Made by a program: the position numbers and the translations under genes. A stretch of 64,000 nucleotides of DNA from Candidatus Babeliales bacterium. Its GTDB lineage: Bacteria > Babelota > Babeliae > Babelales > JACPOV01. Location of the stretch: positions 298,365-362,364 of the forward strand of contig JBBDJI010000013.1 in the NCBI GenBank assembly GCA_040879965.1. Direction: 5' to 3'. The notes beneath the pieces are model-generated. The model was not told the origin of the DNA, did not search any database, and was given only the letters and a program-made list of their open reading frames with translations. Positions 35,731-63,106 of the stretch are shown in pieces; position 1 is the first letter of the stretch; every line of letters begins with the position of its first letter.

Positions 35731-35807
35731 TGGTGCGCCCGGCAGGAATCGAACCTGCAACCTTCAGATTCGAAGTCTGACGCTCTATCCTATTGAGCTA
35801 CAGGCGC
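35731..35807 (-). tRNA. tRNA-Arg (anticodon UCG), CCA encoded
   Basis: Reverse complement folds as a cloverleaf: acceptor GCGCCTG/CGGGCGC (one G-U), D stem GCTC/GAGC, anticodon stem TCAGA/TCTGA with loop CTTCGAA, T arm GCAGG-TTCGATT-CCTGC, then ACCA. Confidence 0.9.
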
Positions 35808-44793: not shown

Positions 44794-46041
44794 CTACCAT
44801 CCAAAAACCCTTTTGGTAAAGTTATTCGAAAACATCCCATTCAGATCTAATTTTTTTCTCACATCAATAAATTTAGTTAAATTCTCTCCATATAACTTAA
44901 AGGCATCTTCATACGTTAAATAATTTAATTTTCCCCAATGAGGCCGCCCATTAAATGGTAACAATGTTTTATAGAACTCTTTATAAAAAGGCATGAATTT
45001 TTCTTGAACTGGAGTAGTTACACTTATAAATACCACATCCCGGCCTGCAGCTGGGCTCAAATACATATCCTTTTCTGCATTAACAAAACGGCATAATATG
45101 CCATCAATACTTACTCCTTTTTTCTTATATTCCTTAATTAATTTTTGTACTGCCTCAACTGCCGGCACTAATATTTCTTGTTTTACTGCTATTTCTTCTT
45201 CTAAATATAATGGTGATGGCTGCCCTGAAAGAACTTTATACCCATATTCAATATTTTTTGATTGCGTATCGGTATTCAATATTTTTGAAAACCAAGTTGT
45301 ACGCGATTTCTCAGTTTTATTAAATATATCGACTGCAACTTCATTAGAATCTGCATAGAGAAAAAAAGAAAAGAAATCATTATTCTTGTGTAAATTTGGA
45401 TACTCATGACTTATGATTTTCCAATCAGTTGTATAATGAATATGGCTTACCCAAAATAATGGCACGCATTGCAAGGTTACGGCATAAATTATCCCTAAAG
45501 AACCGATAGTCATACGGCAAGCGGAAAACCATTCAGCATGAGAAGTTTTTGAAACTTCGTATATAGAGCCATCTGCCGCAAGTAATTCTATTTTTATTAC
45601 AAAATCGGCCATAGTACCAGTATTACCGGATCCGTGTGTTGCCGTTGAGACAACGCCCGCGATACTTTGTTCAGTAATTGCTGGTTGATTGGGCAATGCC
45701 AATCCATTATTGGCTAATACTTTTATGAGATCTTTTAATTTTATTCCTGCTTGCACACGGATCTGTTTTTTTTCTTTATCAATTACAAGCACACGATTTA
45801 AATGGTCTGTATTAAGCAAATAACCATCAGTGCACAAAATATCGGTCCATGAATGCCCGGTGCCAATTGCCCGTATTGTTTTCTTCTCAACCGCTGCTTT
45901 CTTTATAATTTCTTTTAAATGTTCAAGATTTCGTGGTTTTATAATTTGTTGCGGATTACACGTTAAATTACCTGCCCAATTTGTCCATTCATCCGCGGCT
46001 AACATGGGAAAAAGAAAAAAAAATAACATATAAATAATCAT
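44794..46041 (-). CDS. FAD-linked sugar-1,4-lactone oxidase family (L-gulonolactone/D-arabinonolactone oxidase-like) with hydrophobic leader
   Basis: NWAGN near the N-terminus, IRAIGTGHSWTDI (FAD_binding_4), C-terminal GRPHWGK (ALO domain). Confidence 0.8.
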   Translation of the reverse strand: MIIYMLFFFLFPMLAADEWTNWAGNLTCNPQQIIKPRNLEHLKEIIKKAAVEKKTIRAIGTGHSWTDILCTDGYLLNTDHLNRVLVIDKEKKQIRVQAGIKLKDLIKVLANNGLALPNQPAITEQSIAGVVSTATHGSGNTGTMADFVIKIELLAADGSIYEVSKTSHAEWFSACRMTIGSLGIIYAVTLQCVPLFWVSHIHYTTDWKIISHEYPNLHKNNDFFSFFLYADSNEVAVDIFNKTEKSRTTWFSKILNTDTQSKNIEYGYKVLSGQPSPLYLEEEIAVKQEILVPAVEAVQKLIKEYKKKGVSIDGILCRFVNAEKDMYLSPAAGRDVVFISVTTPVQEKFMPFYKEFYKTLLPFNGRPHWGKLNYLTYEDAFKLYGENLTKFIDVRKKLDLNGMFSNNFTKRVFGW

Positions 46042-48189: not shown

Positions 48190-49671
48190 ATGAACTGGAT
48201 TCTTTGTTTATTTCTTACGTTGTTCATTAATAATTTTCATATAACCAATAGCAATCAGCATGAAACACCTTCAAAGCAAAGTAATTTTACTCTTTCCTAT
48301 GAAATATGTATGAATCAATTAAACACATTGGAATATACACTTCTTGAAATACTCACTGCATTACATGATCATTTAGAATACTGGGAACAATTACAATTGC
48401 GTCCAATTCGGCGTTTTATCAGTAACGGCCCTTTAAAATGGTTTAAATCTCAATCGCAAACGATAGAAATTAAAGACCACGTCAAAGTTTTACAACAAGA
48501 AATTGAAAATATTAGCCGGTATATTGGCTATTTGCATGAAATTAAACAACAAAAAAAATCTGCTTCCGCTAATTTTGCCCATCAAGAACTTTATCGGTTA
48601 GCGCATATTATCAATAAATGTCTGGATTATTCTGATCCAAATACGCAACCGATTATAAAAGAAAATCTTGAACAAGAACTCAATATACTATTGATGAAAA
48701 ATAAAAAAAAATTAGCTCATTTTAAAAATACTATGAACGGTCGCATTGCAATACATAAAAAACCCTCTCATTTTTCTCGGCATTGGCTCGAATATTCTAT
48801 TGGAGCGCTTTCCGCACTTAGTTCTTTGGCTTACTGGTATAAAAATCATGATAAAGTAAATAAATGGGTACATGACACCCATACTTCTGGCAAAAATTTT
48901 TATCATAATTATGCATATCAACCAATACAAAATATAATCGATATTTTTTATGGTAAATATGAAACTAAAGAACTAATTACTACCGAAGAAATAAAAAATT
49001 TAGAAGAAATGAAAAGAGAAGGAATTATTAATTTTTATAAAAAGCATACTAATCTTGCTGAACAAGAAATTAAAAAAATTGCAGAAGAAGCAATTCAACA
49101 AAAAACTTTACCAGAATTGATTAGAAAAAAATGGTTAGAGACCTCACCAAATGCATTGTGGAATGTATTAATTGGAAGCACAAGATTACCATATATCGGT
49201 AATAAAGATGCCATTTGGCTCGCTCTTTTGAAAATAGATGATGGTATTATCACTGGAAAATCTGCTTTATTACTTGGGCAAGATATACTTAAAGCAAATT
49301 CGCTCAATCAACAAATTCTAGTTGCTATACCTGCCGTACTCACGATACTCGGTGGATGCTATACGATAAAAAAAGCTTATAATTTATTTAAAAAAAATCC
49401 ATTTGATTACATACAAAAAGAATTGATATCAATTGAAAGTATTTTAAATAAGTATAACAACTCGTCAATGTCTATAGATTATACTGCATTAGGTCTTATT
49501 CATTATCATGAATATAAAATCTTAAATAATATCGATTGCATTCCAGTTGGTGATCAAGCACGATTTATTCGTGATCTATCAGAACTCGATTCACTTGAGT
49601 TTTCAATCCCACAAAAAATTGCAACTATTAATCGCATGTATCGCGCCTATCCATTTTTAGTAAAAAAATAA
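48190..49671 (+). CDS. Hypothetical membrane protein
   Basis: 493-aa ORF with signal-like N-terminus and internal hydrophobic segments (SIGALSALSSLAYW, ILVAIPAVLTILGG). No family recognised. Confidence 0.5.
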   Translation: MNWILCLFLTLFINNFHITNSNQHETPSKQSNFTLSYEICMNQLNTLEYTLLEILTALHDHLEYWEQLQLRPIRRFISNGPLKWFKSQSQTIEIKDHVKVLQQEIENISRYIGYLHEIKQQKKSASANFAHQELYRLAHIINKCLDYSDPNTQPIIKENLEQELNILLMKNKKKLAHFKNTMNGRIAIHKKPSHFSRHWLEYSIGALSALSSLAYWYKNHDKVNKWVHDTHTSGKNFYHNYAYQPIQNIIDIFYGKYETKELITTEEIKNLEEMKREGIINFYKKHTNLAEQEIKKIAEEAIQQKTLPELIRKKWLETSPNALWNVLIGSTRLPYIGNKDAIWLALLKIDDGIITGKSALLLGQDILKANSLNQQILVAIPAVLTILGGCYTIKKAYNLFKKNPFDYIQKELISIESILNKYNNSSMSIDYTALGLIHYHEYKILNNIDCIPVGDQARFIRDLSELDSLEFSIPQKIATINRMYRAYPFLVKK

Positions 49672-53114: not shown

Positions 53115-54800
53115 GTGAAAAAAATAATTTTTTTAATTTTTCTTAATATTGTTGCAACTACTTATGCTTCAGAGGATATTCCAGCCGAGTTTCAAAATTA
53201 TCATACCAAAAAATGGCCTCAATTTTTAGTTAATTTTTACAATGCAATTCAAGAAACATTATATGATGTTAAAGAAAATATAACGAGCATTCCGCAAGCC
53301 GTATATTTTAAATTTATCGGCAAACATCCGCATGCTGAAGAACAAGCTATAGTACGATTTTCTGAAAATGATGATATTTCTGATATAGAGAAGGAATTCA
53401 TTAAGCAACGTTTAAAATTTGTGAAAGAAAATTTAGAAAAAGAATTTAATATTTCTTTAGATGAAAATAAAATACCACGAATTGGCCTAATTTTTAGTGG
53501 TGGTGGTTTTCGCGCTATGATTACCACACTTGGCTTTTTATGTGGCGCGCAAACGATAGGACTTCTTGATAATACTTTATACTGTACTGGCCTTTCTGGT
53601 TCAACATGGGCTCTTGCTCCTTGGATTGCTTCTAAAAAACCACTTCTACAATTTACCAAAGAACTTACCAACAAATTATCCTATGGTATAGATCATATAG
53701 ATACCCCTTATGAACTGAGTGAATTATTAGAAATTTTTGTTACAAAATTACTATGTGGTCAATTTATATCTACTATGGATATTTATGGCAACGTTATTGT
53801 AAATACCTTACTCAGAGATTTGATTGATAAGCCTATGCTTATACGCATGACAGAATCTCACGCACATATTTTAAATGGTTCTGCACCGTTACCAATTTAT
53901 ACCGCGATACAAACACATCGCGATCCATATGAATGGATGGAGTTTACGCCATTTGAAGTGGGAAGTTCATATTTAAAATCATATGTGCCAACATGGGCCT
54001 ATGGCAGAAGCTTCTCCGGTGGTTCCTCACATGATTATGCACCAGAACAAACATTAGGTTATTTTTTGGGTATTTTTGGTTCAGCTTTTGAAGTAAACTT
54101 GAAGGATATTGTTCGCATGAGTGCTACTAATCTTTCTTATTATGGTCATCAATTACCAGGAATACTTGCCGGTGCTTTAAAAAAATGCCTTCGTCTTATT
54201 TTAGATTCTTTTTTAGGTGAAATGAGATTATTTCCTTCAATGCTTTCTAATTTTACTTATCTATGCGAGCAAAGCCCTATTTGTGATGAAAAAACAATTC
54301 CACTGGTTGATGCCGGTATTGATTTTAATTTACCTTTTCCGCCATTACTCAGACCGGCACGCAATATGGACATTCTAATTGTGTATGATGCTTCAGCAGA
54401 TATTGAAAATGCACCGGAATTAAGACGAGCAGAACGATATGCGCAGAGAAATGGCCTTAAATTTCCACCTATTAATTATGAAATAGTTGATAAGCAACCA
54501 GTAAGTATTTTTAAAGATACTGAAGATCCGCAGGTACCAATGGTTATTTATTTTCCACGCATAAAAAATATAAATTATTCAATGGAATTTGACCCTGAAT
54601 ATTGCATTGAAGGGGATTATTGCAATACATTCAACTTTAGTTATAAACCAGAAGAAGCAAAATTATTATGTGGCTTTGCAGAATTTGCATTGCATGAACA
54701 ACAAGAACTCATAAAACAATCAATTCAAGATGTGCTTGTGGAAAAATATGGTTATGCAATGACTACGCCCTCAACAGAAGCAATGGAGATTGTAGCATAG
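53115..54800 (+). CDS. Eukaryote-type cytosolic phospholipase A2 / lysophospholipase (PLA2_B, group IV-like) with signal peptide
   Basis: SGGGFRAM (oxyanion/Arg), GLSGSTW (nucleophile Ser), LVDAGIDFNLPFPPLLRPARNMDILIVYDASA (Asp region, close to cPLA2-alpha VDSGLTFNLPYPLILRPQRGVDLIISFDFSA from memory). GTG start after aaggaggggg. Confidence 0.85.
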   Translation: MKKIIFLIFLNIVATTYASEDIPAEFQNYHTKKWPQFLVNFYNAIQETLYDVKENITSIPQAVYFKFIGKHPHAEEQAIVRFSENDDISDIEKEFIKQRLKFVKENLEKEFNISLDENKIPRIGLIFSGGGFRAMITTLGFLCGAQTIGLLDNTLYCTGLSGSTWALAPWIASKKPLLQFTKELTNKLSYGIDHIDTPYELSELLEIFVTKLLCGQFISTMDIYGNVIVNTLLRDLIDKPMLIRMTESHAHILNGSAPLPIYTAIQTHRDPYEWMEFTPFEVGSSYLKSYVPTWAYGRSFSGGSSHDYAPEQTLGYFLGIFGSAFEVNLKDIVRMSATNLSYYGHQLPGILAGALKKCLRLILDSFLGEMRLFPSMLSNFTYLCEQSPICDEKTIPLVDAGIDFNLPFPPLLRPARNMDILIVYDASADIENAPELRRAERYAQRNGLKFPPINYEIVDKQPVSIFKDTEDPQVPMVIYFPRIKNINYSMEFDPEYCIEGDYCNTFNFSYKPEEAKLLCGFAEFALHEQQELIKQSIQDVLVEKYGYAMTTPSTEAMEIVA

Positions 54801-54843
54801 AACATATCGTTTTTATAACATGTTTATAGTTTAACTTTCAAGT

Positions 54844-55188
54844 ATTTGGCCTCATACCGGCCAAGACATAAGGGTATTGCTTGCCCAATACCCTTAACAC
54901 AAGGGCACCAACGTCCCGTTGGATTATTTTCTCGCTCATAACGAGAAGTCTCATACTTCAGGTTTTCAACCTTCGTCTTCAGATCTCGACTCGCTACCGG
55001 ATTAAAATAAAATAAATTAAAAAAATTCATGTGACCAGATCCGAGGCTTTAGCTGCAAGGAGGAGTGAGCACGAATTTGGGCGAATGAGCAATCCAACAT
55101 GTTGGTGTATTTTTGTCCAGTTTTTTGTACAAGCAAAAAGATTGGTGCTGCGCGCATAGCGCCGGAAGAATTACCGTTTAAAGATCAT
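54844..55188. repeat. GC-rich hairpin-dense element, copy A (~345 nt)
   Basis: Direct repeat of 56960..57365. Two GC-rich arms split by aaaataaaataaattaaaaaa. Hairpins at 54846-54864, 54870-54895, 54908-54922. Lies between convergent gene ends. Confidence 0.85.
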
Positions 55189-55241
55189 GAATATTTAGAA
55201 AAATTTTTTTGTATATATATCTTAATCAAACAACTATAAAA

Positions 55242-56270
55242 TTAGTAATTAATAAGTGCTTCAGCAAATATAAATTCTTGTAATGATTGTTGCACATTAG
55301 TCTGCAATTCTTTTATATGCGCTGGAAATGTAGGGTTTGCTATTTGAGAAAAGCTATTAATTATATTATCCAACCAAGTTGCTGAATTATTAATCTCTTG
55401 TATTAATTTTTCGGCCATTTTTTGCAAGCGTATGGCATTTACCGGAGATGTTTTCTTTATTAATTCAACTTTATAATACATAAACCCAAGTGTCGCGGAG
55501 AGCTGCTGAATATATAACTCCCAAGTTGAGATAAACAAAACACGATTATATTCCTTTTTTTCTCCGTTTACCAGCGCTGGATTATTGATATTGTTAATAG
55601 TTTCATTTGTTTTGCTCATTTGCGTAGCATAATTTTCAAGCTCATTTGATAAATCGTTTATATTTACTTTATTAGTTAAAAACCAATTCAAATCTCGATT
55701 ATGGAAAAATTTAGCCATAAATCGGTCAACCGTTGTATCAAAAATTTTAAAATATTTACCAAATGGGTTCATAGCGCTCGTTACTATTTGTGAAACCGCA
55801 ATTAATAAACATTGATTACCCAAGAATCGTCCCCATCCTTTTAAATAACCGCTACGTTTCATTGGAAGTCCGACATCTTCTCCATAGTCTGCTAAGCGTT
55901 CGCGTATTACTTCAAAAGCTTTATCTCTATCTTGTAAACTTTTTTGTTGCGCTTGAATAATTTCTGCCTGTTTTATTACAAATGAATATTGATCATCCAT
56001 ATTAATCTTGCTAGACAAAACAGGAGATAAATTTTCTACTATTTTTGGCGCCTCAAAAAAAATTTTATAGCCATAATAACCAATACTCAACAATCCTGCA
56101 GCAACCATCCCTGTTTTTATAATTGAATTATTTCTTAATTCTTGTGCTATCTGTTGTTTATAGGAATCGATTTTAGACTGTTCAATGCGAACGATAGTTT
56201 CATCACTATACAAAAAGGCATTAAACATAAAGCTGAAAAGAGTTAAAGAAATAAATTGACTAATTTTCAC
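55242..56270 (-). CDS. Hypothetical secreted/membrane protein
   Basis: 342-aa ORF with signal-like N-terminus and one internal TM (TGMVAAGLLSIGYYGYKIFF). Confidence 0.5.
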   Translation of the reverse strand: MKISQFISLTLFSFMFNAFLYSDETIVRIEQSKIDSYKQQIAQELRNNSIIKTGMVAAGLLSIGYYGYKIFFEAPKIVENLSPVLSSKINMDDQYSFVIKQAEIIQAQQKSLQDRDKAFEVIRERLADYGEDVGLPMKRSGYLKGWGRFLGNQCLLIAVSQIVTSAMNPFGKYFKIFDTTVDRFMAKFFHNRDLNWFLTNKVNINDLSNELENYATQMSKTNETINNINNPALVNGEKKEYNRVLFISTWELYIQQLSATLGFMYYKVELIKKTSPVNAIRLQKMAEKLIQEINNSATWLDNIINSFSQIANPTFPAHIKELQTNVQQSLQEFIFAEALINY

Positions 56271-56376
56271 TGATATTCCCCTAATAAAAATTACTATAAT
56301 TACTTAGTATAAAGCGAAAATAGCAACTGAACAACTCGGAAAAACGTACGAATGGAATATAATTCCTGACTGTAAT

Positions 56377-56820
56377 TTATTTTTTAGTTTCTAAGATAAT
56401 AGTAGTCGGGCCATCATTAATTAAATGTACTTTCATATCAGCACCAAAAATGCCTGTTTTTACTTTTTCATAGCGTTCTTTAACTGTTTGCACGAATGCA
56501 CTAAAGAATGGTTCCGCTAAATCAGGCGCCATCGCATAAATAAATGAAGGCCTATTGCCTTTACTAGTGTCTGCATACAAAGTAAATTGAGATACCAGTA
56601 AAATTTCACCATCAATATCGCTCACGCTTTTATTTATTTTGCCTTGATCATCAGCAAAAATACGTAATTTTATTAATTTATCGGCAATATATCGCGCATC
56701 ATCTGGCGTATCGTTTATACCGATGCCAACTAAAACCATTAATCCTTGTTTGATCGAACTTACTTCTTTTTGATCGACAACCACGCAAGCTGATTGTACT
56801 CGCTGAATAACCACTTTCAT
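56377..56820 (-). CDS. dtd: D-aminoacyl-tRNA deacylase
   Basis: MKVVIQRV, SQFTLYADT.KGNRPSF, and C-terminal NDGPTTI (compare NDGPVT). Confidence 0.9.
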   Translation of the reverse strand: MKVVIQRVQSACVVVDQKEVSSIKQGLMVLVGIGINDTPDDARYIADKLIKLRIFADDQGKINKSVSDIDGEILLVSQFTLYADTSKGNRPSFIYAMAPDLAEPFFSAFVQTVKERYEKVKTGIFGADMKVHLINDGPTTIILETKK

Positions 56821-56959
56821 AAAAGCCCAATGTCTTATTTAACTATTTTATAAATATTTTAAGGTAACTACTATATAATTAAAACAAACATTTTTCTACC
56901 TATTTATAATTTTAGATAAAATCTTATAGTATTCCTATTTTAACTTATACTTTGAGCAC

Positions 56960-57365
56960 ATTTGGCCTCATGCCGGCCAAGGCATAAGGGTATTGCGTGC
57001 CCAATACCCTTAACACAAGGGCACCAACTTTCCGTTGGATTATTTTTCCGCTCATAACGAGAACTCTCATACTTCAGGTTTTCAACCTTCGTCTTCGGAT
57101 CTCGACTCGCTACCGGTCGTCATTTATCCAAGTTTTAAAAACATTGGGCTTTCTTGATATAAGTAAAATAAAATAAATTAAAAAATCATGTGAGCCTACG
57201 TATGGCCCGATCCGAGGCCTTACTGGCCGCAGGATGAGTGGGCACGAATTTGGGCGAATAAGCGATCCAACAGCATGTTGGTGTATTTTTGTCCAGTTTT
57301 TTTGTACAAACAAAAAAATTGGTGATGCGCGCACAGCGCCGTGAGAATTACCGTTTAAAGATCAT
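56960..57365. repeat. GC-rich hairpin-dense element, copy B (~406 nt)
   Basis: Same element as 54844..55188 with two extra internal segments (about 49 nt after ...ctaccgg and about 13 nt in the right arm). Lies in the divergent dtd/ppa intergenic region. Confidence 0.85.
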
Positions 57366-57440
57366 ACGAAAAATACTTTATTTTCAGCTATATCAATGTT
57401 ATTCTAAAAATATCAAATTCCCTTAGTTTTTAGGAAAAAA

Positions 57441-57995
57441 ATGCAAAATAATTCTCATGACCGCTTTTTTCATCCTTGGCATTCACTGCCAATTGGCCCT
57501 GAAGCGCCGAATAAAGTGCAAAGTATTATCGAAATTCAACAAGGATCAAAAGCTAAATATGAACTTGATAAATTAACCGGGTTTTTGAGATTAGATCGTA
57601 TCCTAGCTTCAAACTTGAGCTATCCTTTTCATTATGGGTTTATTCCCCAAACTTATTGCCCCGATAATGACCCTTTAGATATTTTAATTTTATGTTCTGA
57701 AGCATTATTACCACTGAGTATTGTAGAAGCTACCGTACTTGGCGCAATAAAAATGCTTGATGGCGGCCAGCAAGACGACAAAATTATCGCCGTTGCAAGC
57801 AATGATCCCTTTATGAAAGGGAAAAAAGAATTATCGGATATCAATCCAGAAACATTAAATACCATTCAGAACTTTTTTGAAAATTATAAAAAGCCTGAAG
57901 GTAAAACCGTTATTATTCAAGATATCATGAATCGAGAAGATGCACTTAATATAGTCAAAGACAGCGTAAAGCTCTATCAAAAACAATTTAAATAA
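57441..57995 (+). CDS. ppa: Inorganic pyrophosphatase (family I)
   Basis: IIEIQQGSKAKYELD, YGFIPQT, DNDPLDILIL, DDKIIAV. Confidence 0.9.
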   Translation: MQNNSHDRFFHPWHSLPIGPEAPNKVQSIIEIQQGSKAKYELDKLTGFLRLDRILASNLSYPFHYGFIPQTYCPDNDPLDILILCSEALLPLSIVEATVLGAIKMLDGGQQDDKIIAVASNDPFMKGKKELSDINPETLNTIQNFFENYKKPEGKTVIIQDIMNREDALNIVKDSVKLYQKQFK

Positions 57996-58043: not shown

Positions 58044-58409
58044 TCAACCCTTGGGTCGAATAAATTTTTCCAACCCATAGAGCGTACAAGCACCTGCTGC
58101 CAACAAGCCAATCATTTGTTTTATTGATAACGCATCGGCTGGAAGAACTCCTGAAAAAGTATTGCTCGTGGATAATTTATCGATAACTAATATGCTCGTT
58201 AAAAAAGAAGAACTTAAAGCACAAATTCCATAACCTATTTTTGCCGTTAATGCGGTATTGTATCGCAAATCTTTTATAAAATTACTTATTATTTCCGGTG
58301 ATTGTTTTGGAACTGCATTAAGCGAATATATTTGCGATATCAAAAAGATGCTAAATATCAAGTGAAAACATTTATGCATTGTATTCTTTCTTTTCATTTT
58401 CTTCTTCAA
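58044..58409 (-). CDS. Small signal-peptide membrane protein, distant member (P5) of the tandem family
   Basis: ORF with probable start ATG 58379, overlapping the stop of the upstream gene as ATGCATAA. Hydrophobic leader and Gly/Ala-rich C-terminal helix. Confidence 0.45.
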   Translation of the reverse strand: MKKKMKRKNTMHKCFHLIFSIFLISQIYSLNAVPKQSPEIISNFIKDLRYNTALTAKIGYGICALSSSFLTSILVIDKLSTSNTFSGVLPADALSIKQMIGLLAAGACTLYGLEKFIRPKG

Positions 58410-58890
58410 CTTCTAACGCTTTGCTTGCACAATAACACATAAGCGCATAAACAAAACCTTTCAAAACTATTTTTTCTTCAGAAATATTTAATTTGTGACT
58501 CGCTTGCCTTACCTCTCCCCAGTCAAAAAAATAATCTGCAAAAGTTCTCCAAGAAAGAACATGAAAAAGAAACCCGAACGTATAAACAGTATTCGAAGAA
58601 AATTGGCGTGCTGTTTTTACCGTTTTTAAATCCCAGAATTTTTTTAATATTCTTTTTATTTTTTGATAATTAGAATGCATAAAATTATTTGGTTCATTTT
58701 CAATACTTTTGATAAGCACTGCAGTCATCAAAGAACTCATTATTGAAGCAACAAACGCCGTTTTTATTTCAGGATTTTGCATTATTGATTGCGTTGGTTT
58801 TTTAATATTAAAACAATCACTCCAAGTAGCGCAAGCCGCCTGAAATAACGCTATACTGAAAATTAAAATAACTATTTTTAATTTTTTCAT
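58372..58890 (-). CDS. Small signal-peptide protein, tandem family member P4
   Basis: Start ATG 58890 after ggggg. Shares ATWSDCF.IKKPTQS, VKTARQF and FVYALMCYCASKALEV with P1 and P2. Confidence 0.55.
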   Translation of the reverse strand: MKKLKIVILIFSIALFQAACATWSDCFNIKKPTQSIMQNPEIKTAFVASIMSSLMTAVLIKSIENEPNNFMHSNYQKIKRILKKFWDLKTVKTARQFSSNTVYTFGFLFHVLSWRTFADYFFDWGEVRQASHKLNISEEKIVLKGFVYALMCYCASKALEVEEENEKKEYNA

Positions 58891-59004
58891 TAAGACCCCC
58901 AAGTAAGCTGTTTTATTTAACCGATATTTTTTATCTTATCTCTCAGTTGCAAAAAGTAAATCGGGCCAAAATTTGTTAATTTTAATTATTTTTATTGAGC
59001 TTTT

Positions 59005-59373
59005 TCAATTATTTTTTGGCCTATCTTCTGCTAAAAAACATGATAAAGCCGCTAAAGTTACTGCAGTCAAACTATATCCCGCTAAAAATTTTTTACTTGG
59101 ATGAAAATCAAGTTTATCCGTAATTTTTTTTAAATCACCTTGCAGCGCAGCTGCATAAGGTACACCAACCATCACAAGACCCACATAAAACGCACTATCA
59201 GATATATATTTGCGCACCGTTTTGTCATTTTTTAAATGCCATGCAGCTTGTTGAACACCATTTTTAACAGTTTTGATTGATGGAAACCAATCAGTAATTC
59301 CGGCCTGCACATTTGCACCGGCAAAAGAAATAAAAAGCATGCTTAATAACATTAATTTTATAGACATATTCAT
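59005..59373 (-). CDS. Small signal-peptide protein, tandem family member P3
   Basis: N-terminal ISFAGANVQAGITDWF is identical to P2. The downstream part is diverged. Confidence 0.55.
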   Translation of the reverse strand: MNMSIKLMLLSMLFISFAGANVQAGITDWFPSIKTVKNGVQQAAWHLKNDKTVRKYISDSAFYVGLVMVGVPYAAALQGDLKKITDKLDFHPSKKFLAGYSLTAVTLAALSCFLAEDRPKNN

Positions 59374-59416
59374 AATTAAATCTCCATAAGTAAGTTAATA
59401 ATTAACAGGACAAAAA

Positions 59417-59857
59417 TTATTTATTTTCTTCAGTTTCGTTGCCAATCTCAGGTTGAGATTCAGTTTCAGTTTTGGTTTCTACACTTTTCTTTTTATCCAC
59501 TTCCAATGTTTTACTTAAACAATAAGCAGCTAAAGCAAAAGCAAAAGTTTTTCCAATAGATTGAATCATAGTTTTATCACTCAATCCACAAACTTGTTTA
59601 AATTCGGGATACCATAAGGCGTAAAGTCCTAAATTCATCCAGCCAAAAATAGAAAATATCTGAGCTGCCATATAAGTATTACTAGAAACAAATCTACGTG
59701 CCGTTTTACTAACTTCTGTATTCCATACAGATTGCGTAGCATTTGTAACACTTTTAACTGGTTTTTTAAACCAATCAGTAATTCCTGCTTGCACATTTGC
59801 ACCGGCAAAAGAAATAAGAAGCATACCTAATAATATTGATTTTACAGAATTATTCAT
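59417..59857 (-). CDS. Small signal-peptide protein, tandem family member P2
   Basis: SILLGMLLISFAGANVQAGITDWFKKPVKSVTNATQSVWNTEVSKTARRF is nearly identical to P1. Acidic Glu/Thr-rich tail. Confidence 0.6.
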   Translation of the reverse strand: MNNSVKSILLGMLLISFAGANVQAGITDWFKKPVKSVTNATQSVWNTEVSKTARRFVSSNTYMAAQIFSIFGWMNLGLYALWYPEFKQVCGLSDKTMIQSIGKTFAFALAAYCLSKTLEVDKKKSVETKTETESQPEIGNETEENK

Positions 59858-59987
59858 AATTAAACCCCCATAAGTAAGTTAATAATTAAAAAAGGAAAAG
59901 GAGCTAGGAACCTAACTCTTCTTGTTTAATTATTAATCTAATTTTTTTATTCTGATACCGTTTCTATTGTTGTTGCAGTGTTAGTTT

Positions 59988-60371
59988 CTATAACTTTTCA
60001 GGCTTTTTATCCACTCTTATTGCAGTACTTAAGCAATAAGCAGCTAAAGCAAAAGCAAAAGGTTTTCCAAGAGCGCGAATTACCGTTGTATCATTCAATT
60101 CACAAAATTGTTCAAACCAATGATTATTACAAAAATACCCTGCTAGATTAATCCAGCCAATAAAAGTAAGCACATGGCCTAATCCACGTGCGTTAATCGA
60201 AGCAAATCGACGCGCTGTTTTACTAACTTCTGCATTCCATGCAGATTGCGTAGCATTTGTAACACTTTTAACTGGTTTTTTAAACCAATCAGTAATTCCT
60301 GCCTGCATATTTGCGCCGGCAAAAGAAACAAAAAGTATACCTAATAATATTGATTTTATAGACTTATTCAT
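59988..60371 (-). CDS. Small signal-peptide protein, tandem family member P1
   Basis: Start ATG 60371 preceded by ggagg. SILLGILFVSFAGANMQAGITDWFKKPVKSVTNATQSAWNAEVSKTARRF and the C-terminal FAFALAAYCLS helix are shared with P2. Confidence 0.6.
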   Translation of the reverse strand: MNKSIKSILLGILFVSFAGANMQAGITDWFKKPVKSVTNATQSAWNAEVSKTARRFASINARGLGHVLTFIGWINLAGYFCNNHWFEQFCELNDTTVIRALGKPFAFALAAYCLSTAIRVDKKPEKL

Positions 60372-60505
60372 ATTAAACCTCCACATTAAAGTCTTATGTT
60401 AATTATAGGCTAAAATTATCAGAACTTAAGTTAATTGTCAAAATACTAATCAATTTGAAAGTATTTTATTGGTGCTTGTTGTTTTTAATTTCTATTTAAC
60501 AAATT

Positions 60506-63106
60506 TTATTTGGATGCAAGCATTCTTTTTAAATATTTTCCAGTATGACTTTGGGTATTTTTTGCTACTTGTTCAGGTGTGCCTTGCGCGACAACTTGGC
60601 CTCCTGCATCACCACCTTCTGGGCCCATGTCGATAATATAATCGGCTGTTTTGAGCACATCAATATTATGTTCAATGACTATCATTGAATTGCCTTTATC
60701 AATCAATCGATTTAAAACAAGCAATAATTTTTCGATATCACTGTTATGTAATCCAGTCGTCGGTTCATCTAAAATATACAAAGTTTTATTGCCTCGTTTT
60801 GCAAGTTCGTCAACTAACTTGATACGCTGCGCTTCACCACCTGATAACGTAATAGAAGACTGACCTAGTTTTACATAATCAAGCCCCACATCACAAAGCA
60901 ATTGTAATCGTTTTGCAATATTTTTATGTGCAGCAAAAAATTCAACTGCTTCAAGCGCCGTCATATCAAGCACTTCAGCAATATTTTTATCTCTATAACG
61001 AATAGTTAATGTTTCAATATTATATCGTTTTCCTTTGCATATTTTGCAAGTCATAACTACATCAGCTAAAAATTGCATTGAAACGGTAATAGTTCCATCA
61101 CCGCGGCATTCAAAACAACGCCCCTCAGCTACATTAAAACTAAATCGCCCTGGTTTATATCCGCGTGCTTGGCTTTCTGGTAACCGCGTAAATAATTTTC
61201 TAATTTCATCAAAAATACCTAAATACGTTGCGGGATTTGAACGCGGCGTACGGCCAATTGGAGATTGATCAATAACCACTAATGAATCAACATGCTCTAG
61301 GCCTTTTAATTCATCAGTATCATTAATAGTACGAGCTTTACGCGCAAAACCAGCAAATGCTTGTTGTACCGCGGGTACAATTTCATCAAGAACTAAAGTG
61401 CTTTTGCCAGAACCGGATACACCTGATATGCAACACAATACTTCAAGTGGGACTTTAACTTCTAAGTTTTTTAAATTATTTTTTTGCGCATGCGAAAGTG
61501 TTAGGAAATGTTTTAATGTACGTCGTTTTTTAGGTATTGCAATACCACGACGTCCTGCTAAATAGGCACCAGTTAATGATGCGGTATTTTCTGCTAATTG
61601 TTTTGGATTACCGACTGCAGTTACATGGCCACCAAGTGTTCCAGCAGCAGGGCCCATATCTACAATATAATCAGCTTCTAACATGGTATCGGTATCATGC
61701 TCTACTACAACAACGGTATTACCTTGATCACGCAATGTTTTTAATGTTTGAATTAAGCGATCATTATCACGTTGATGCAAACCAATGCTTGGTTCATCAA
61801 GAATATATAATACGCCACTTAATGCAGAACCAATTTGCGTTGCTAAGCGAATACGCTGCCCTTCACCGCCTGATAATGTTCGGGCTGAACGATTAAGCGT
61901 AAGGTATGAAAGACCAACATCGTATAAAAATTGGAAACGACTGGTTATTTCTTTAATTAAATTTTCTGCAATTGCCTGATCAGTCTCCGGCAATGAAAGT
62001 TCTTTGAAAAAAGCTAAAGCCTCTTTAATTGAAAAATCACATACATCAACAATATGCTTATTTTGTATCGTGACTGCTAAAGCATGCTTATGTAAACGCT
62101 TGCCAAAACAACTGCGACATGTTTTCTCTTGTGCATGAGAACCAAAAAAATCAGGATAGTTTGATTTCCAATTTTCTTTATCGCCTTCTTTCCATGGCCA
62201 TATATGAATAACACCTAATCCATTACATTCTTTACAAGCGCCGATGGGCGAATTAAAAGAGAAAAATCGTGGTTCTAATTCAGGAAATGCAGTCGAACAA
62301 TGCAAACACATGCGATGCGACGAATATAAATGCTCATCAGTCCCAACCATAATCTTGCATAGCCCTTCAGCAAGTTGAAAAGATTTTTCTATGGCTTCTT
62401 GCACGCGAGAACGTTCATCATTAGTAATTTCTAATTTATCAATCAGCAAATCAATAGAATGCTTATAGGTTTTTGCTAACTTTAATGATTTAATTTCATC
62501 TTCACTTGTAAAACGATATGAAGTGCCATCAATAATAAATCGATAAAATCCATTTTGATACAACTGCAATAATTGTTGCTTAAATTCGCCTTTTTTTTGA
62601 TTAACGATTGGCGCCGCAATAGTAATCATGTTTTCTTTAAATTGAGTCAAAATAAGACTTGCAATATTTTCGGGTGATTGTTGTTGGATTATTAGGCCAC
62701 AATCAGGACAATGCGGCTTACCTATTCGTGCATAAAGTACCCGCAAATAATCATAAATTTCAGTAATGGTACCTACCGTGGAACGAGGATTATGACCTAC
62801 CGTTTTTTGCTCAATCGCAATCGCCGGGCAAAGCCCTTCAATACGGTCAAAATCTGGCTTTTTAGCAATGCCAAGAAATTGACGCGCATATGATGATAAA
62901 GATTCCATATAACGTCGCTTACCTTCAGTATAGAGTACATCAAGCGCTAAAGAGCTTTTCCCTGAACCGGAGGGACCCGTAATTACCGTCAATTTATTTT
63001 TAGGAATTTCTAAATCAACGTTTTTCAGGTTATGCTCACGAGCACCGATGATTTTGATCCATTCGGTCGACTTTTTAGTATTTTTTGGAGAATTCTCTCT
63101 ATTCAT
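60506..63106 (-). CDS. uvrA: Excinuclease ABC subunit A (UvrA) with a strongly shortened insertion domain
   Basis: Two ABC modules (GPSGSGKSSLA / LSGGEGQRIRLA and GVSGSGKSTL / LSGGEAQRIKL). Zinc modules HCPDC, MCLHC, ACKEC, TCRSC. Only 35 residues separate CKEC and CRSC. 866 aa. Confidence 0.9.
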   Translation of the reverse strand: MNRENSPKNTKKSTEWIKIIGAREHNLKNVDLEIPKNKLTVITGPSGSGKSSLALDVLYTEGKRRYMESLSSYARQFLGIAKKPDFDRIEGLCPAIAIEQKTVGHNPRSTVGTITEIYDYLRVLYARIGKPHCPDCGLIIQQQSPENIASLILTQFKENMITIAAPIVNQKKGEFKQQLLQLYQNGFYRFIIDGTSYRFTSEDEIKSLKLAKTYKHSIDLLIDKLEITNDERSRVQEAIEKSFQLAEGLCKIMVGTDEHLYSSHRMCLHCSTAFPELEPRFFSFNSPIGACKECNGLGVIHIWPWKEGDKENWKSNYPDFFGSHAQEKTCRSCFGKRLHKHALAVTIQNKHIVDVCDFSIKEALAFFKELSLPETDQAIAENLIKEITSRFQFLYDVGLSYLTLNRSARTLSGGEGQRIRLATQIGSALSGVLYILDEPSIGLHQRDNDRLIQTLKTLRDQGNTVVVVEHDTDTMLEADYIVDMGPAAGTLGGHVTAVGNPKQLAENTASLTGAYLAGRRGIAIPKKRRTLKHFLTLSHAQKNNLKNLEVKVPLEVLCCISGVSGSGKSTLVLDEIVPAVQQAFAGFARKARTINDTDELKGLEHVDSLVVIDQSPIGRTPRSNPATYLGIFDEIRKLFTRLPESQARGYKPGRFSFNVAEGRCFECRGDGTITVSMQFLADVVMTCKICKGKRYNIETLTIRYRDKNIAEVLDMTALEAVEFFAAHKNIAKRLQLLCDVGLDYVKLGQSSITLSGGEAQRIKLVDELAKRGNKTLYILDEPTTGLHNSDIEKLLLVLNRLIDKGNSMIVIEHNIDVLKTADYIIDMGPEGGDAGGQVVAQGTPEQVAKNTQSHTGKYLKRMLASK

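Follow-up and report, generated by a model that had tools for sequence, protein, structure and literature searches.

Foldback elements are eukaryotic, with long inverted repeats and tandem sub-repeats in the arms, and the Correia/NEMIS elements and Rickettsia palindromic elements (RPEs) are 100–150 bp in length with short ends. IS200/IS605 elements have a conserved short target 5′ of the left end, and one end is not an inverted homologue of the other. Bacterial MITEs are usually AT-rich and have typical ends of 10–50 nt (PMC5896051, PMC10969869, PMC2229807); one of them, QMITE1 of Coxiella burnetii, is 300–400 bp long and is present in about 50 copies (PMC5896051). REP palindromes of 20–40 nt carry a GTAG or CGTC tag (PMC3733652) and typically number in the tens to hundreds (PMC3116915).

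The two repeats described here lie in a 64-kb stretch of DNA from a Candidatus Babeliales bacterium (the window). They resemble QMITE1 and other bacterial MITEs in having a size of 300–430 bp, no ORF, inverted-repeat ends, and a very stable predicted stem-loop, and resemble QMITE1 in that the host is an intracellular bacterium with a reduced genome, in that they lie in AT-rich spacers, and in that their presence varies among relatives. They differ from MITEs in that their ends are ~105 nt, diverged, and composed of three distinct hairpins, in that the element exceeds the genome in GC content, and in that no target duplications are demonstrable; unlike QMITE1, the element has two known copies (in the ~66 kb covered) and no known parent IS. 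With REP, BIME, and REPIN sequences (PMC3116915, PMC3337134, PMC3733652) it shares extragenic, mirrored palindromic hairpins in which shape counts more than sequence, and REPs are often found between convergent genes, but the present unit is much larger and composite, very low in copy number, and has no tag and no RAYT in view. Like foldback, Correia, and RPE sequences, it is non-coding, lies in or near genes, and consists mostly of ends that are able to fold back, but no tandem sub-repeats were seen in its arms, and it is larger, with longer ends, than Correia elements or RPEs. Subterminal hairpins, the lack of an evident target duplication, and the absence of a transposase inside the element are shared with non-autonomous IS200/IS605 derivatives; here, however, the ends are inverted homologues, there is no TnpA or TnpB gene nearby, and the left flanks of the two copies have only AT in common, with no conserved tetra- or pentanucleotide target. 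On balance, we take both repeats to represent a foldback or MITE-like DNA element that is rare, low in copy number, and non-autonomous, with a probability of about 0.6.

Organization of the Two Copies

Twin direct repeats at 54844–55188 and 56960–57365 had been recognized in an earlier note on this DNA, and both were recovered, with ~92% identity in aligned blocks. These cores stand, but the left edges do not, as the homology extends ~21 nt beyond them, starting at 54823 and 56937. The new limit of copy A is based on an inverted match to R1, a covariance model made solely from the right arms, together with a common TTTAACTT motif; that of copy B was set by the R1 match. The main features of the locus are as follows.

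54823–55188, plus strand: copy A, whole element (366 nt; direct-repeat core 54844–55188)
55242–56820, minus strand: bracketed segment with a gene for a 342-residue hypothetical protein (hyp) and dtd (gene order, orthology, Pfam)
56937–57365, plus strand: copy B, whole element (429 nt; direct-repeat core 56960–57365)

Copy A separates PLA2_B (53115–54800, plus strand) from hyp (55242–56270, minus strand), whose 3′ ends converge, and copy B is in the divergent spacer from dtd (56377–56820, minus strand) to ppa (57441–57995, plus strand). The left arms (54844–55000 and 56960–57116) are 94% identical, and other aligned blocks are 85–97% identical; the copies differ by ~8% plus five indels. Copy B has a surplus of 61 nt over copy A, in stretches of 45 (57117–57161), ~10–11, 2, 3, and 1 nt; the two longest had previously been put at 49 and 13 nt. 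The GC content of 0.429 in copy A and 0.433 in copy B, as compared with 0.319 for the window and 0.13–0.21 for the flanking spacer, agrees with the GC-richness noticed at the outset. Outside the cores, comparison of the right flank of A with the inverted left flank of B gave z = 3.1, and the other comparisons of A/T-rich flanks were not significant. The window contains no copies beyond A and B and there is no third copy in the 2 kb past its end, so that ~66 kb were covered altogether.

The two copies have the same orientation, are 2.1 kb apart, and bracket exactly two genes, hyp and dtd. Together with the lack of a third copy in 66 kb, this would agree with a single insertion whose second copy arose through local segmental duplication and deletion, or recombination, around hyp-dtd, in which case the pair would be uninformative on repeated mobility. 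However, both copies are placed exactly within spacers and the neighboring genes are intact, their divergence means that any duplication is old, and a homologue in another organism (see below) indicates that the family moves between genomes. We regard such a local origin of the second copy as improbable.

Long Terminal Inverted Repeats

The statement in the earlier note that there are no terminal inverted repeats was wrong: the two arms of the element are inverted homologues over ~105 nt. R1 matches the left arm of copy A over its full length on the minus strand (45.2 bits, E = 4.8e-11), and does so likewise with the left arm of copy B (40.0 bits, E = 2e-9) and, on the opposite strand, with the left arm of the homologous element in metagenome contig L050 (39.2 bits, E = 3e-8). 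These matches of a right-arm model to opposite-strand left arms indicate that each element has diverged terminal inverted repeats of ~105 nt. In addition, a whole-element profile matches its own reverse strand, alignments of one arm with the reverse complement of the other gave z = 3.9 for copy A and 9.6 for L050, and the L050 element ends in a 47-nt inverted repeat. Each terminal repeat comprises three hairpins, H1-H2-H3 on the left and, in mirror arrangement, H4-H5-H6 on the right, and the variable center between them holds an A/T tract; the match between the two ends is poor in their outermost few bases. In copy A, all of the hairpins and palindromes named in the earlier note were located where it had put them, with its H2 at 54870–54895. 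The parts of the two copies are listed below.

54823–54930, plus strand: copy A, left terminal inverted repeat (R1 full-length match on the minus strand)
54830–54837: copy A, left-arm tail motif TTTAACTT
54846–54864: copy A, H1
54869–54896: copy A, H2
54897–54907: copy A, linker ACACAAGGGCA
54908–54922: copy A, H3
54931–55085, plus strand: copy A, variable center (from alignments; length and order differ in L050)
54929–54947: copy A, center hairpin TTCTCG/CGAGAA
54960–54972: copy A, center mini-hairpin
55001–55024: copy A, A/T tract
55086–55188, plus strand: copy A, right terminal inverted repeat (R1, 112.9 bits)
55094–55105: copy A, H4, palindrome CCAACATGTTGG
55117–55145: copy A, H5
55125–55132: copy A, palindrome TTGTACAA
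55149–55156: copy A, palindrome TGCGCGCA
55150–55162: copy A, H6
55167–55188: copy A, right tail AGAATTACCGTTTAAAGATCAT
56937–57046, plus strand: copy B, left terminal inverted repeat (R1 full-length match on the minus strand)
56962–56980: copy B, H1
56985–57012: copy B, H2
57024–57038: copy B, H3
57117–57161, plus strand: 45-nt insertion present in copy B only, directly before the A/T tract (57162–57185)
near 57194–57204: copy B, second extra stretch of ~11 nt (from alignments and repeat spacings)
57259–57365, plus strand: copy B, right terminal inverted repeat (R1, 127.7 bits)
57267–57281: copy B, H4
57293–57322: copy B, H5
57327–57339: copy B, H6
57344–57365: copy B, tail

Both Sites Are Empty in Syntenic Relatives

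Two distant relatives, L007 and L011, with Dtd proteins 64–67% identical to that of the window, retain ppa, dtd, hyp, PLA2_B, and mutS in the same order as the window. The ppa-dtd spacer is 88 and 161 nt in these relatives as compared with 620 nt in the window, and hyp and PLA2_B, separated by a 441-nt gap in the window, overlap by 4 nt in both; no trace of the element was seen in either. Both copies are therefore insertions, which bears out the insertion-like behavior first suggested by their placement. The 342-residue hypothetical protein has orthologues in the corresponding segment of L007 and L011, and the segment has Pfam matches. Judged from this synteny, the hyp-dtd segment is ancestral at the locus and not cargo.

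The last result bears on the view that the repeats are attachment-site-like sequences or the decayed ends of an island, prophage, or IS carrying hyp-dtd. A short gene segment flanked by direct repeats has the appearance of such a structure, but synteny in relatives without the repeats largely refutes it, no integrase or phage genes are found nearby, and the GC skew has no origin-like switch. Nor does the pair appear to be an artefact of assembly: both junctions recur, in the undeleted arrangement, in L001, a contig that Logan assembled independently from another read set, and a Logan unitig is broken inside both copies, as expected of a genuine repeat. An island-like structure or an assembly artefact is thus highly improbable.

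No target-site duplication is demonstrable. Copy A is flanked by CATG on either side (54819–54822 and 55186–55189), copy B by TCCT and CATA, and the flanks of the L050 element are A/T runs that are uninformative in this respect. The copies are old, and decay of such direct repeats is known (PMC10969869).

A Homologue with Conserved Hairpins

The sole homologue found is in L050, an unrelated-looking metagenome contig of 48% GC, where the element can be aligned end to end with those of the window. One 42-nt block is 97.6% identical, other hairpins are swapped for hairpins of different sequence, and the center is rearranged and differs in length from that of the window copies. The 42-nt and H4 blocks are thus near-invariant between genomes of 32% and 48% GC. 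The most strongly conserved blocks, H2 with its linker and H4, lie in the interior, whereas simple transposase-binding ends would predict the termini.

In A, B, and L050 combined, 98.5% of the cells of the 24 right-arm pairs are paired. Two-sided changes are present in seven right-arm pairs, as compared with 2.4 ± 1.2 in shuffled controls (0/500) and 0–2 in slid controls, and H1 and H3, as assessed by eye, have also been kept through two-sided changes. Templated correction of quasi-palindromes can be another source of such changes, which are therefore no proof of selection. Between the left arms of A and B there are, as the earlier note counted, nine substitutions. None alters any of the 21 stem pairs, and four are located in the loops of the three hairpins; with P = 0.06 for no stem hit and P = 0.014 for at least four of nine in loops, this pattern is weak by itself.

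The family is very rare in the collections scanned, with one true metagenome match and none in the genome, viral, plasmid, and phage sets. Among 47 loci listed for the H2 hairpin pattern in metagenome contigs, only L050 is homologous, the other 46 being unrelated terminator-like hairpins or coding sequence (e.g. L028); a scan of the same type of contigs with CCTTAACACAAGGGCACCAAC gave no matches. The genome-contig scan with CTTCAGGTTTTCAACCTTCG gave five chance matches in GC-rich MAGs, and five viral-contig scans gave chance matches only. In blastn searches of plasmids and phages, neither copy B nor the L050 element gave a meaningful match, and a protein encoded next to the L050 element, searched for related contigs, proved to be an orphan.

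Coding Content and Known Families

No ORF is conserved in A, B, and L050, in which the frames differ and are broken by 1–3-nt indels, and stop-free segments of at least 20 residues from all six frames of the three elements had no matches at E values up to 10 among 5.8 billion proteins. A conserved small peptide or a type I toxin-antitoxin (hok/sok-like) system was rejected, there being no ORF common to the three. In agreement with what had been noted about the adjacent genes, no transposase or reverse transcriptase was detected by Pfam within ~13 kb on either side (20 ORFs), and integrase, TnpB, TnpA, RAYT, and phage genes are likewise absent from these ORFs. A cognate autonomous IS was found neither in the window nor among the matches listed from DNA-pattern scans of the collections. 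Two further candidates were rejected: a replication origin, as the GC skew is monotonic across the window, and a diversity-generating retroelement pair, as the substitutions are not adenine-specific and no reverse transcriptase is present in the 20 neighboring ORFs.

The repeats also match no known RNA family, as the earlier note had supposed for tmRNA, RNase P, SRP, and 6S. Rfam scanning of the window at gathering thresholds yielded only two tRNAs, both elsewhere, and E-value scans of 54700–57500 and L050 yielded only noise; the families covered include tmRNA, RNase P, 6S, SRP, group I and II introns, HEARO, OLE, and ROOL. The elements have no tRNA match either, and ARAGORN found no tmRNA.

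These results are relevant to the proposal that the elements are genes of a new family of large (~350–430 nt) structured ncRNAs, represented by two paralogues in the window and by the L050 homologue, in which the RNA would form a closed multi-hairpin body with arms also able to pair together. At 43% GC against a genomic background of 32%, the elements are enriched in GC as structured RNAs of AT-rich genomes typically are, the plus strands fold with z-scores of -3.5 and -3.9 in the window copies and -6.6 in L050, and the two-sided changes, the near-invariant blocks, and the sparing of left-arm stems are all in keeping with an RNA. However, the minus strand folds about equally well, with consensus energies of -83.7 and -80.0 kcal/mol for the opposite strands, and the better-folding strand is not the same in the window copies and L050, where it is the minus strand. 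The inverted homology of the arms is a symmetry of the DNA and would not be needed for RNA function, the empty sites in relatives argue against a conserved gene, and the center is rearranged among family members. There is no conserved promoter or terminator, the sole promoter-like site in A being split by the 45-nt insertion of B, and Rfam offers no match. An RNA gene is unlikely. Unlikely as well, to a similar degree, is a horizontally mobile gene for a ~350–430-nt structured RNA, outside the described RNA families and present in Dependentiae and at least one other lineage; in that case, the near-invariant hairpin-linker UAAGGGUAUUGCGUGCCCAAUACCCUUAACACAAGGGCA and H4 might be functional sites, e.g. 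for protein binding, and the mirrored arms might come from an ancient inverted duplication.

A third possibility is that the elements are BIME- or REPIN-like clusters of REP-type palindromes, which a RAYT or an IS200/IS605-type tyrosine (HUH) transposase would mobilize by acting on hairpins in single-stranded DNA. The elements are extragenic, with hairpin-dense mirrored palindromic units and an A/T-rich linker, hold their hairpin shape while the sequence turns over, show no target duplication, and have a hairpin that begins 2–3 nt inside the left edge of the core. On the other hand, the palindromes have no adjoining GTAG or CGTC tag of the REP type (PMC3733652), H2 being preceded by ACATAAGGG, GCATAAGGG, or GCGTAAGGG; H2 and H5 are ~220 nt apart and do not form a compact REPIN; no lone H2-like unit occurs elsewhere in the window with up to three mismatches; no RAYT or TnpA is encoded by the 20 ORFs scanned; and REPs usually number tens to hundreds (PMC3116915), as compared with two copies in the ~66 kb covered. 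The chance that the elements are such a cluster is small.

Discussion

The mobile-element option raised in the earlier note is the one favored by the inverted-repeat ends and empty sites. Hairpin-rich inverted ends of ~105 nt, together with sites that lack such DNA in relatives, make a miniature mobile element, and not an RNA gene, the likeliest identity of the repeats. As compared with the features by which MITEs are recognized, (i) the elements, at 366 and 429 nt, are below the limit of ~600–800 bp and contain neither a transposase gene nor a conserved ORF; (ii) terminal inverted repeats are present in A, B, and L050, although they are long and diverged, with poorly matching outermost bases; (iii) both sites, filled in the window, are empty in L007 and L011; and (iv) no target-site duplication is demonstrable, CATG being present on both sides of A but not of B. 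Only two copies are present in ~66 kb, and the genome-contig scan added chance matches only.

As a miniature mobile element, the repeat would have arrived by transposition, with a trans-acting transposase encoded elsewhere recognizing the two mirrored ends; alternatively, a single insertion may have been followed by local copying. The GC-rich hairpins may now serve as passive terminator-like or insulating structures, copy A acting passively between convergent genes and copy B lying in the ppa-dtd promoter spacer.

Dependentiae (Babeliales) are obligate intracellular parasites of protists, and to our knowledge mobile DNA in this group is almost undescribed. The titles and abstracts retrieved in a literature search on repeats and mobile elements in Dependentiae report no such element. 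The practical value of the repeats is modest, as a strain-typing marker, as a cause of assembly breaks, and as a lead to an uncharacterized transposase. In principle, direct copies with 92% identity could mediate the loss or amplification of dtd and its neighbor, and the GC-rich hairpins probably influence how four housekeeping genes are terminated and how their promoters are spaced. If confirmed, the elements would constitute the first miniature-element family for Dependentiae, with unusual GC-rich ends of ~105 nt that each contain three hairpins.

Structure of the Repeat Pair

The two copies of the non-coding, hairpin-dense element, A (between the 3' ends of the PLA2_B gene and the 342-aa hypothetical gene) and B (between dtd and ppa), are a genuine and well delimited repeat pair.

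54844–55188, copy A core direct repeat, 345 nt, non-coding
56960–57365, copy B core direct repeat, 406 nt, non-coding
57117–57161, 45-nt insertion, copy B only

The left arms are 94% identical across 157 nt and the right-arm blocks 85–97% identical; B exceeds A by 61 nt and, besides the 45-nt insertion, has ~10–11 extra nt following the A/T tract as well as three small indels. The description of these sequences in the earlier note as direct repeats more GC-rich than their surroundings is upheld, with a GC content of 42.9% in A, 43.3% in B and 46–49% in the arms as compared with 31.9% in the window and 13–21% in the flanking spacer. Every hairpin and palindrome that it named was found, with coordinates agreeing to within one base, as were its nine substitutions between the left arms, four of which fall within the three loops and none of which touches the 21 stem pairs; taken alone, this loop/stem bias (P = 0.06 and 0.014) is only suggestive. 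No third copy was detected in the window by BLAST, nhmmer, a mismatch-tolerant pattern search or a covariance model. The proposed Rfam check gave no gathering-level match at the repeats, and the only such matches in the window are two tRNA-Arg genes on the minus strand (anticodons CCT and TCG; 35346–35422 and 35731–35807, 300 nt between them). An independently assembled Logan contig (L001, run SRR27977663, 1881 bp) holds dtd and the 342-aa gene and ends 31 nt inside copy B and 79 nt inside copy A. It breaks inside both copies, as a true repeat does in a de Bruijn graph, and the pair is therefore not an artefact of one assembly.

A Homologous Element in a Metagenome

Exact-block scans of public collections were mostly empty or gave chance matches, as did blastn against plasmids and phages. 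A metagenome scan with the second left-arm hairpin (the hairpins are H1–H3 in the left arm and H4–H6 in the right), its loop left free, gave 47 loci, 46 of which are unrelated terminator-like hairpins or coding sequence. The other, L050 (SDBS01232827.1, 1534 bp, 48% GC), is a real homologue, and its alignment to both window copies extends from the 5' TTTTAACTT motif through the 3' AGAAT.A...TTAAA tail. It is 97.6% identical to copy B in a 42-nt block comprising H2, its loop and the linker AACACAAGGGCA, and the block GCAATCCAACAGCATGTTGG is likewise retained; at the positions of the remaining hairpins L050 has others of unlike sequence, and its centre is rearranged relative to A and B. The gene adjoining the element in L050 is an orphan. 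The L050 element has a second, partial right-end motif 90 nt downstream (1347–1401), and 1382–1401 (20 nt) is 95% complementary to 895–914, just outside the left end, which suggests that the right end is duplicated or nested.

Terminal Inverted Repeats and Hairpin Conservation

In searches with a whole-element profile, the opposite strand of the element is also hit (window, E = 3e-12 and 5e-9; L050, E = 2e-13). A covariance model for which the right arms of the three elements were the sole input (H4, H5, H6 and tail; 107 positions, 23 pairs) aligns from end to end with the minus strand of the left arm in all three.

54823–54930, minus strand, copy A left arm, 45.2 bits, E = 4.8e-11
56937–57046, minus strand, copy B left arm, 40.0 bits, E = 2e-9
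909–1010 of L050, minus strand, left arm, 39.2 bits, E = 3.4e-8

The hairpins are mirrored between the arms (H3/H4, H2/H5 and H1/H6), as are the tails (TTTAAC at the left, GTTTAAA at the right). The element thus comprises two diverged ~105-nt terminal inverted repeats and a variable centre of 155 nt in A, 212 nt in B and ~176 nt in L050 that includes the A/T tract, and its revised limits are 54823–55188 (A) and 56937–57365 (B). The earlier statement that there are no terminal inverted repeats is incorrect; their divergence is too great for detection by eye, and the match between the two ends is poor at the outermost bases. The A/T-rich right flank of A (55189–55256) is also similar, in inverted orientation, to the left flank of B (56834–56904) (z = 3.1; 0 of 500 shuffles). 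The similar stretch extends into the final codons of the 342-aa gene and stops 14 nt short of the dtd start; the similarity may be chance in A/T-rich DNA or may represent extended element ends.

Over the 24 pairs of H4, H5 and H6 in A, B and L050, standard pairs fill 98.5% of cells (86% in shuffles, 43–53% with partners slid), and both sides have changed in 7 pairs (2.4 ± 1.2 in shuffles, 0 of 500 reaching 7; 0–2 with partners slid). Judged by eye, H1 and H3 of L050 are also hairpins of different sequence. The high pairing, the changes on both sides and these exchanges indicate that hairpin shape is maintained. Neither strand is favoured: consensus folding of A and B gives −83.7 kcal/mol (plus) and −80.0 kcal/mol (minus), and single-sequence folding z values are −3.5 and −3.9 (plus) and −1.9 and −2.8 (minus) for the window copies and −6.6 (plus) and −8.6 (minus) for L050. 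A new structured RNA family would account for the conserved hairpins and the invariant 42-nt block; it appears unlikely, as it leaves unexplained why the arms are symmetrical in sequence, why neither strand is preferred and why the sites are empty in relatives. A, B and L050 have no conserved ORF, and a search with their segments in all six frames yielded no called protein anywhere. No promoter-like site is common to A and B, the one site in A being interrupted by the insertion of B; H3 and H4, each followed by a T-run, score as terminator-like. The 45-nt insertion also holds AAAACATTGGGCTTTCTTGA (57138–57157), which as DNA is 85% complementary to 56817–56836, across the dtd start codon. If copy B were transcribed on the minus strand, the RNA could base-pair with the translation start of dtd; a complementarity of this degree is expected by chance in 5 kb of sequence.

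Insertion Sites and Gene Neighbourhood

The closest relatives examined, L007 and L011 (Dtd 67 and 64% identical), both have the gene order ppa, dtd, hypothetical gene, PLA2_B, mutS, with full-length orthologues of the hypothetical protein (E = 8e-31 and 4e-32). Their ppa-dtd spacer is 88 or 161 nt, whereas that in the window is 620 nt, and the hypothetical and PLA2_B genes overlap by 4 nt in both but are separated by 441 nt in the window. No search method found a trace of the element in ~70 kb of the relatives' DNA; the window retains, beside copy B, a recognisable part of the spacer on the ppa side. The empty sites and the kept gene order indicate that the bracketed genes are ancestral and the repeats later arrivals, in support of the insertion-like behaviour proposed in the earlier note. 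The ancestral position of these genes also rules out a reading of the repeats as attachment sites on either side of an island. One insertion followed by local duplication could also account for two copies, with low probability.

The neighbouring genes are unremarkable, with mutS and a PLA2_B-type phospholipase upstream, the 342-aa protein (no Pfam match) and dtd between the copies, and ppa, five small paralogous ORFs and a UvrA-like ABC protein downstream. An identical Dtd protein is annotated at NCBI on a 501-kb contig of a Candidatus Babeliales bacterium MAG. The 20 ORFs from 41.7 to 63.1 kb include no transposase, integrase, reverse transcriptase or TnpB, consistent with the earlier observation of no adjacent transposase or reverse transcriptase. 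The five tandem ORFs (121–176 aa; 58044–60386, minus strand) have no Pfam match and, because at least three have a common N terminus of the form ...SILLGMLLISFAGANVQAGITDWF..., look like a locally expanded secreted or membrane protein family; a 112-nt repeat, 91% identical, lies between two of them, where a Logan contig breaks. The UvrA-like protein (866 aa; 60506–63106, minus strand) has UvrA_inter and ABC_tran domains, and a similar 860-aa gene lies near a Fic-domain gene in three more distant relatives (L008–L010). Proteins at 48190–49671, 44794–46041 and 53115–54800 match NCA2 (ATP synthase regulation), D-arabinono-1,4-lactone oxidase and PLA2_B lysophospholipase, which are mainly eukaryotic Pfam families; these genes may be host-acquired or encode effectors, and those for NCA2 and PLA2_B are conserved in L007 and L011.

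Nature of the Element and Its Consequences

The element is probably (about 0.6) a non-autonomous MITE or foldback transposable element, the best fit because it has no gene, has long mirrored ends, folds back, is missing from the corresponding sites in relatives and is carried by two or more widely differing genomes. Of the candidates in the earlier note, the mobile element is thus preferred and the RNA family ranked lower. A transposase encoded elsewhere, or since lost, would recognise the two mirrored ends. Most likely the family is new and rare and the kind of element already known; among described elements, QMITE1 of Coxiella burnetii (300–400 bp; PMC5896051) comes nearest to it in size and setting, and general features of MITEs are given in PMC10969869. 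Weak points of the MITE or foldback reading are that conservation is highest in interior blocks, not at the termini, and that the element is GC-rich rather than AT-rich; no target duplication was demonstrable at the copies, and no partner IS was found. A REP/BIME-like cluster mobilised by a tyrosine (HUH) transposase is improbable, as in the window the element has neither a GTAG or CGTC tag (PMC3733652) nor the usual copy number (PMC3116915).

Copy A fills the space separating two convergent genes whose counterparts overlap in the relatives, and copy B lengthens the divergent ppa-dtd spacer threefold; effects on termination and promoter spacing near the two copies are plausible. The bracketed arrangement is undeleted in the sole independent assembly examined, L001; homologous recombination between the direct repeats could delete or amplify the hypothetical gene and dtd.
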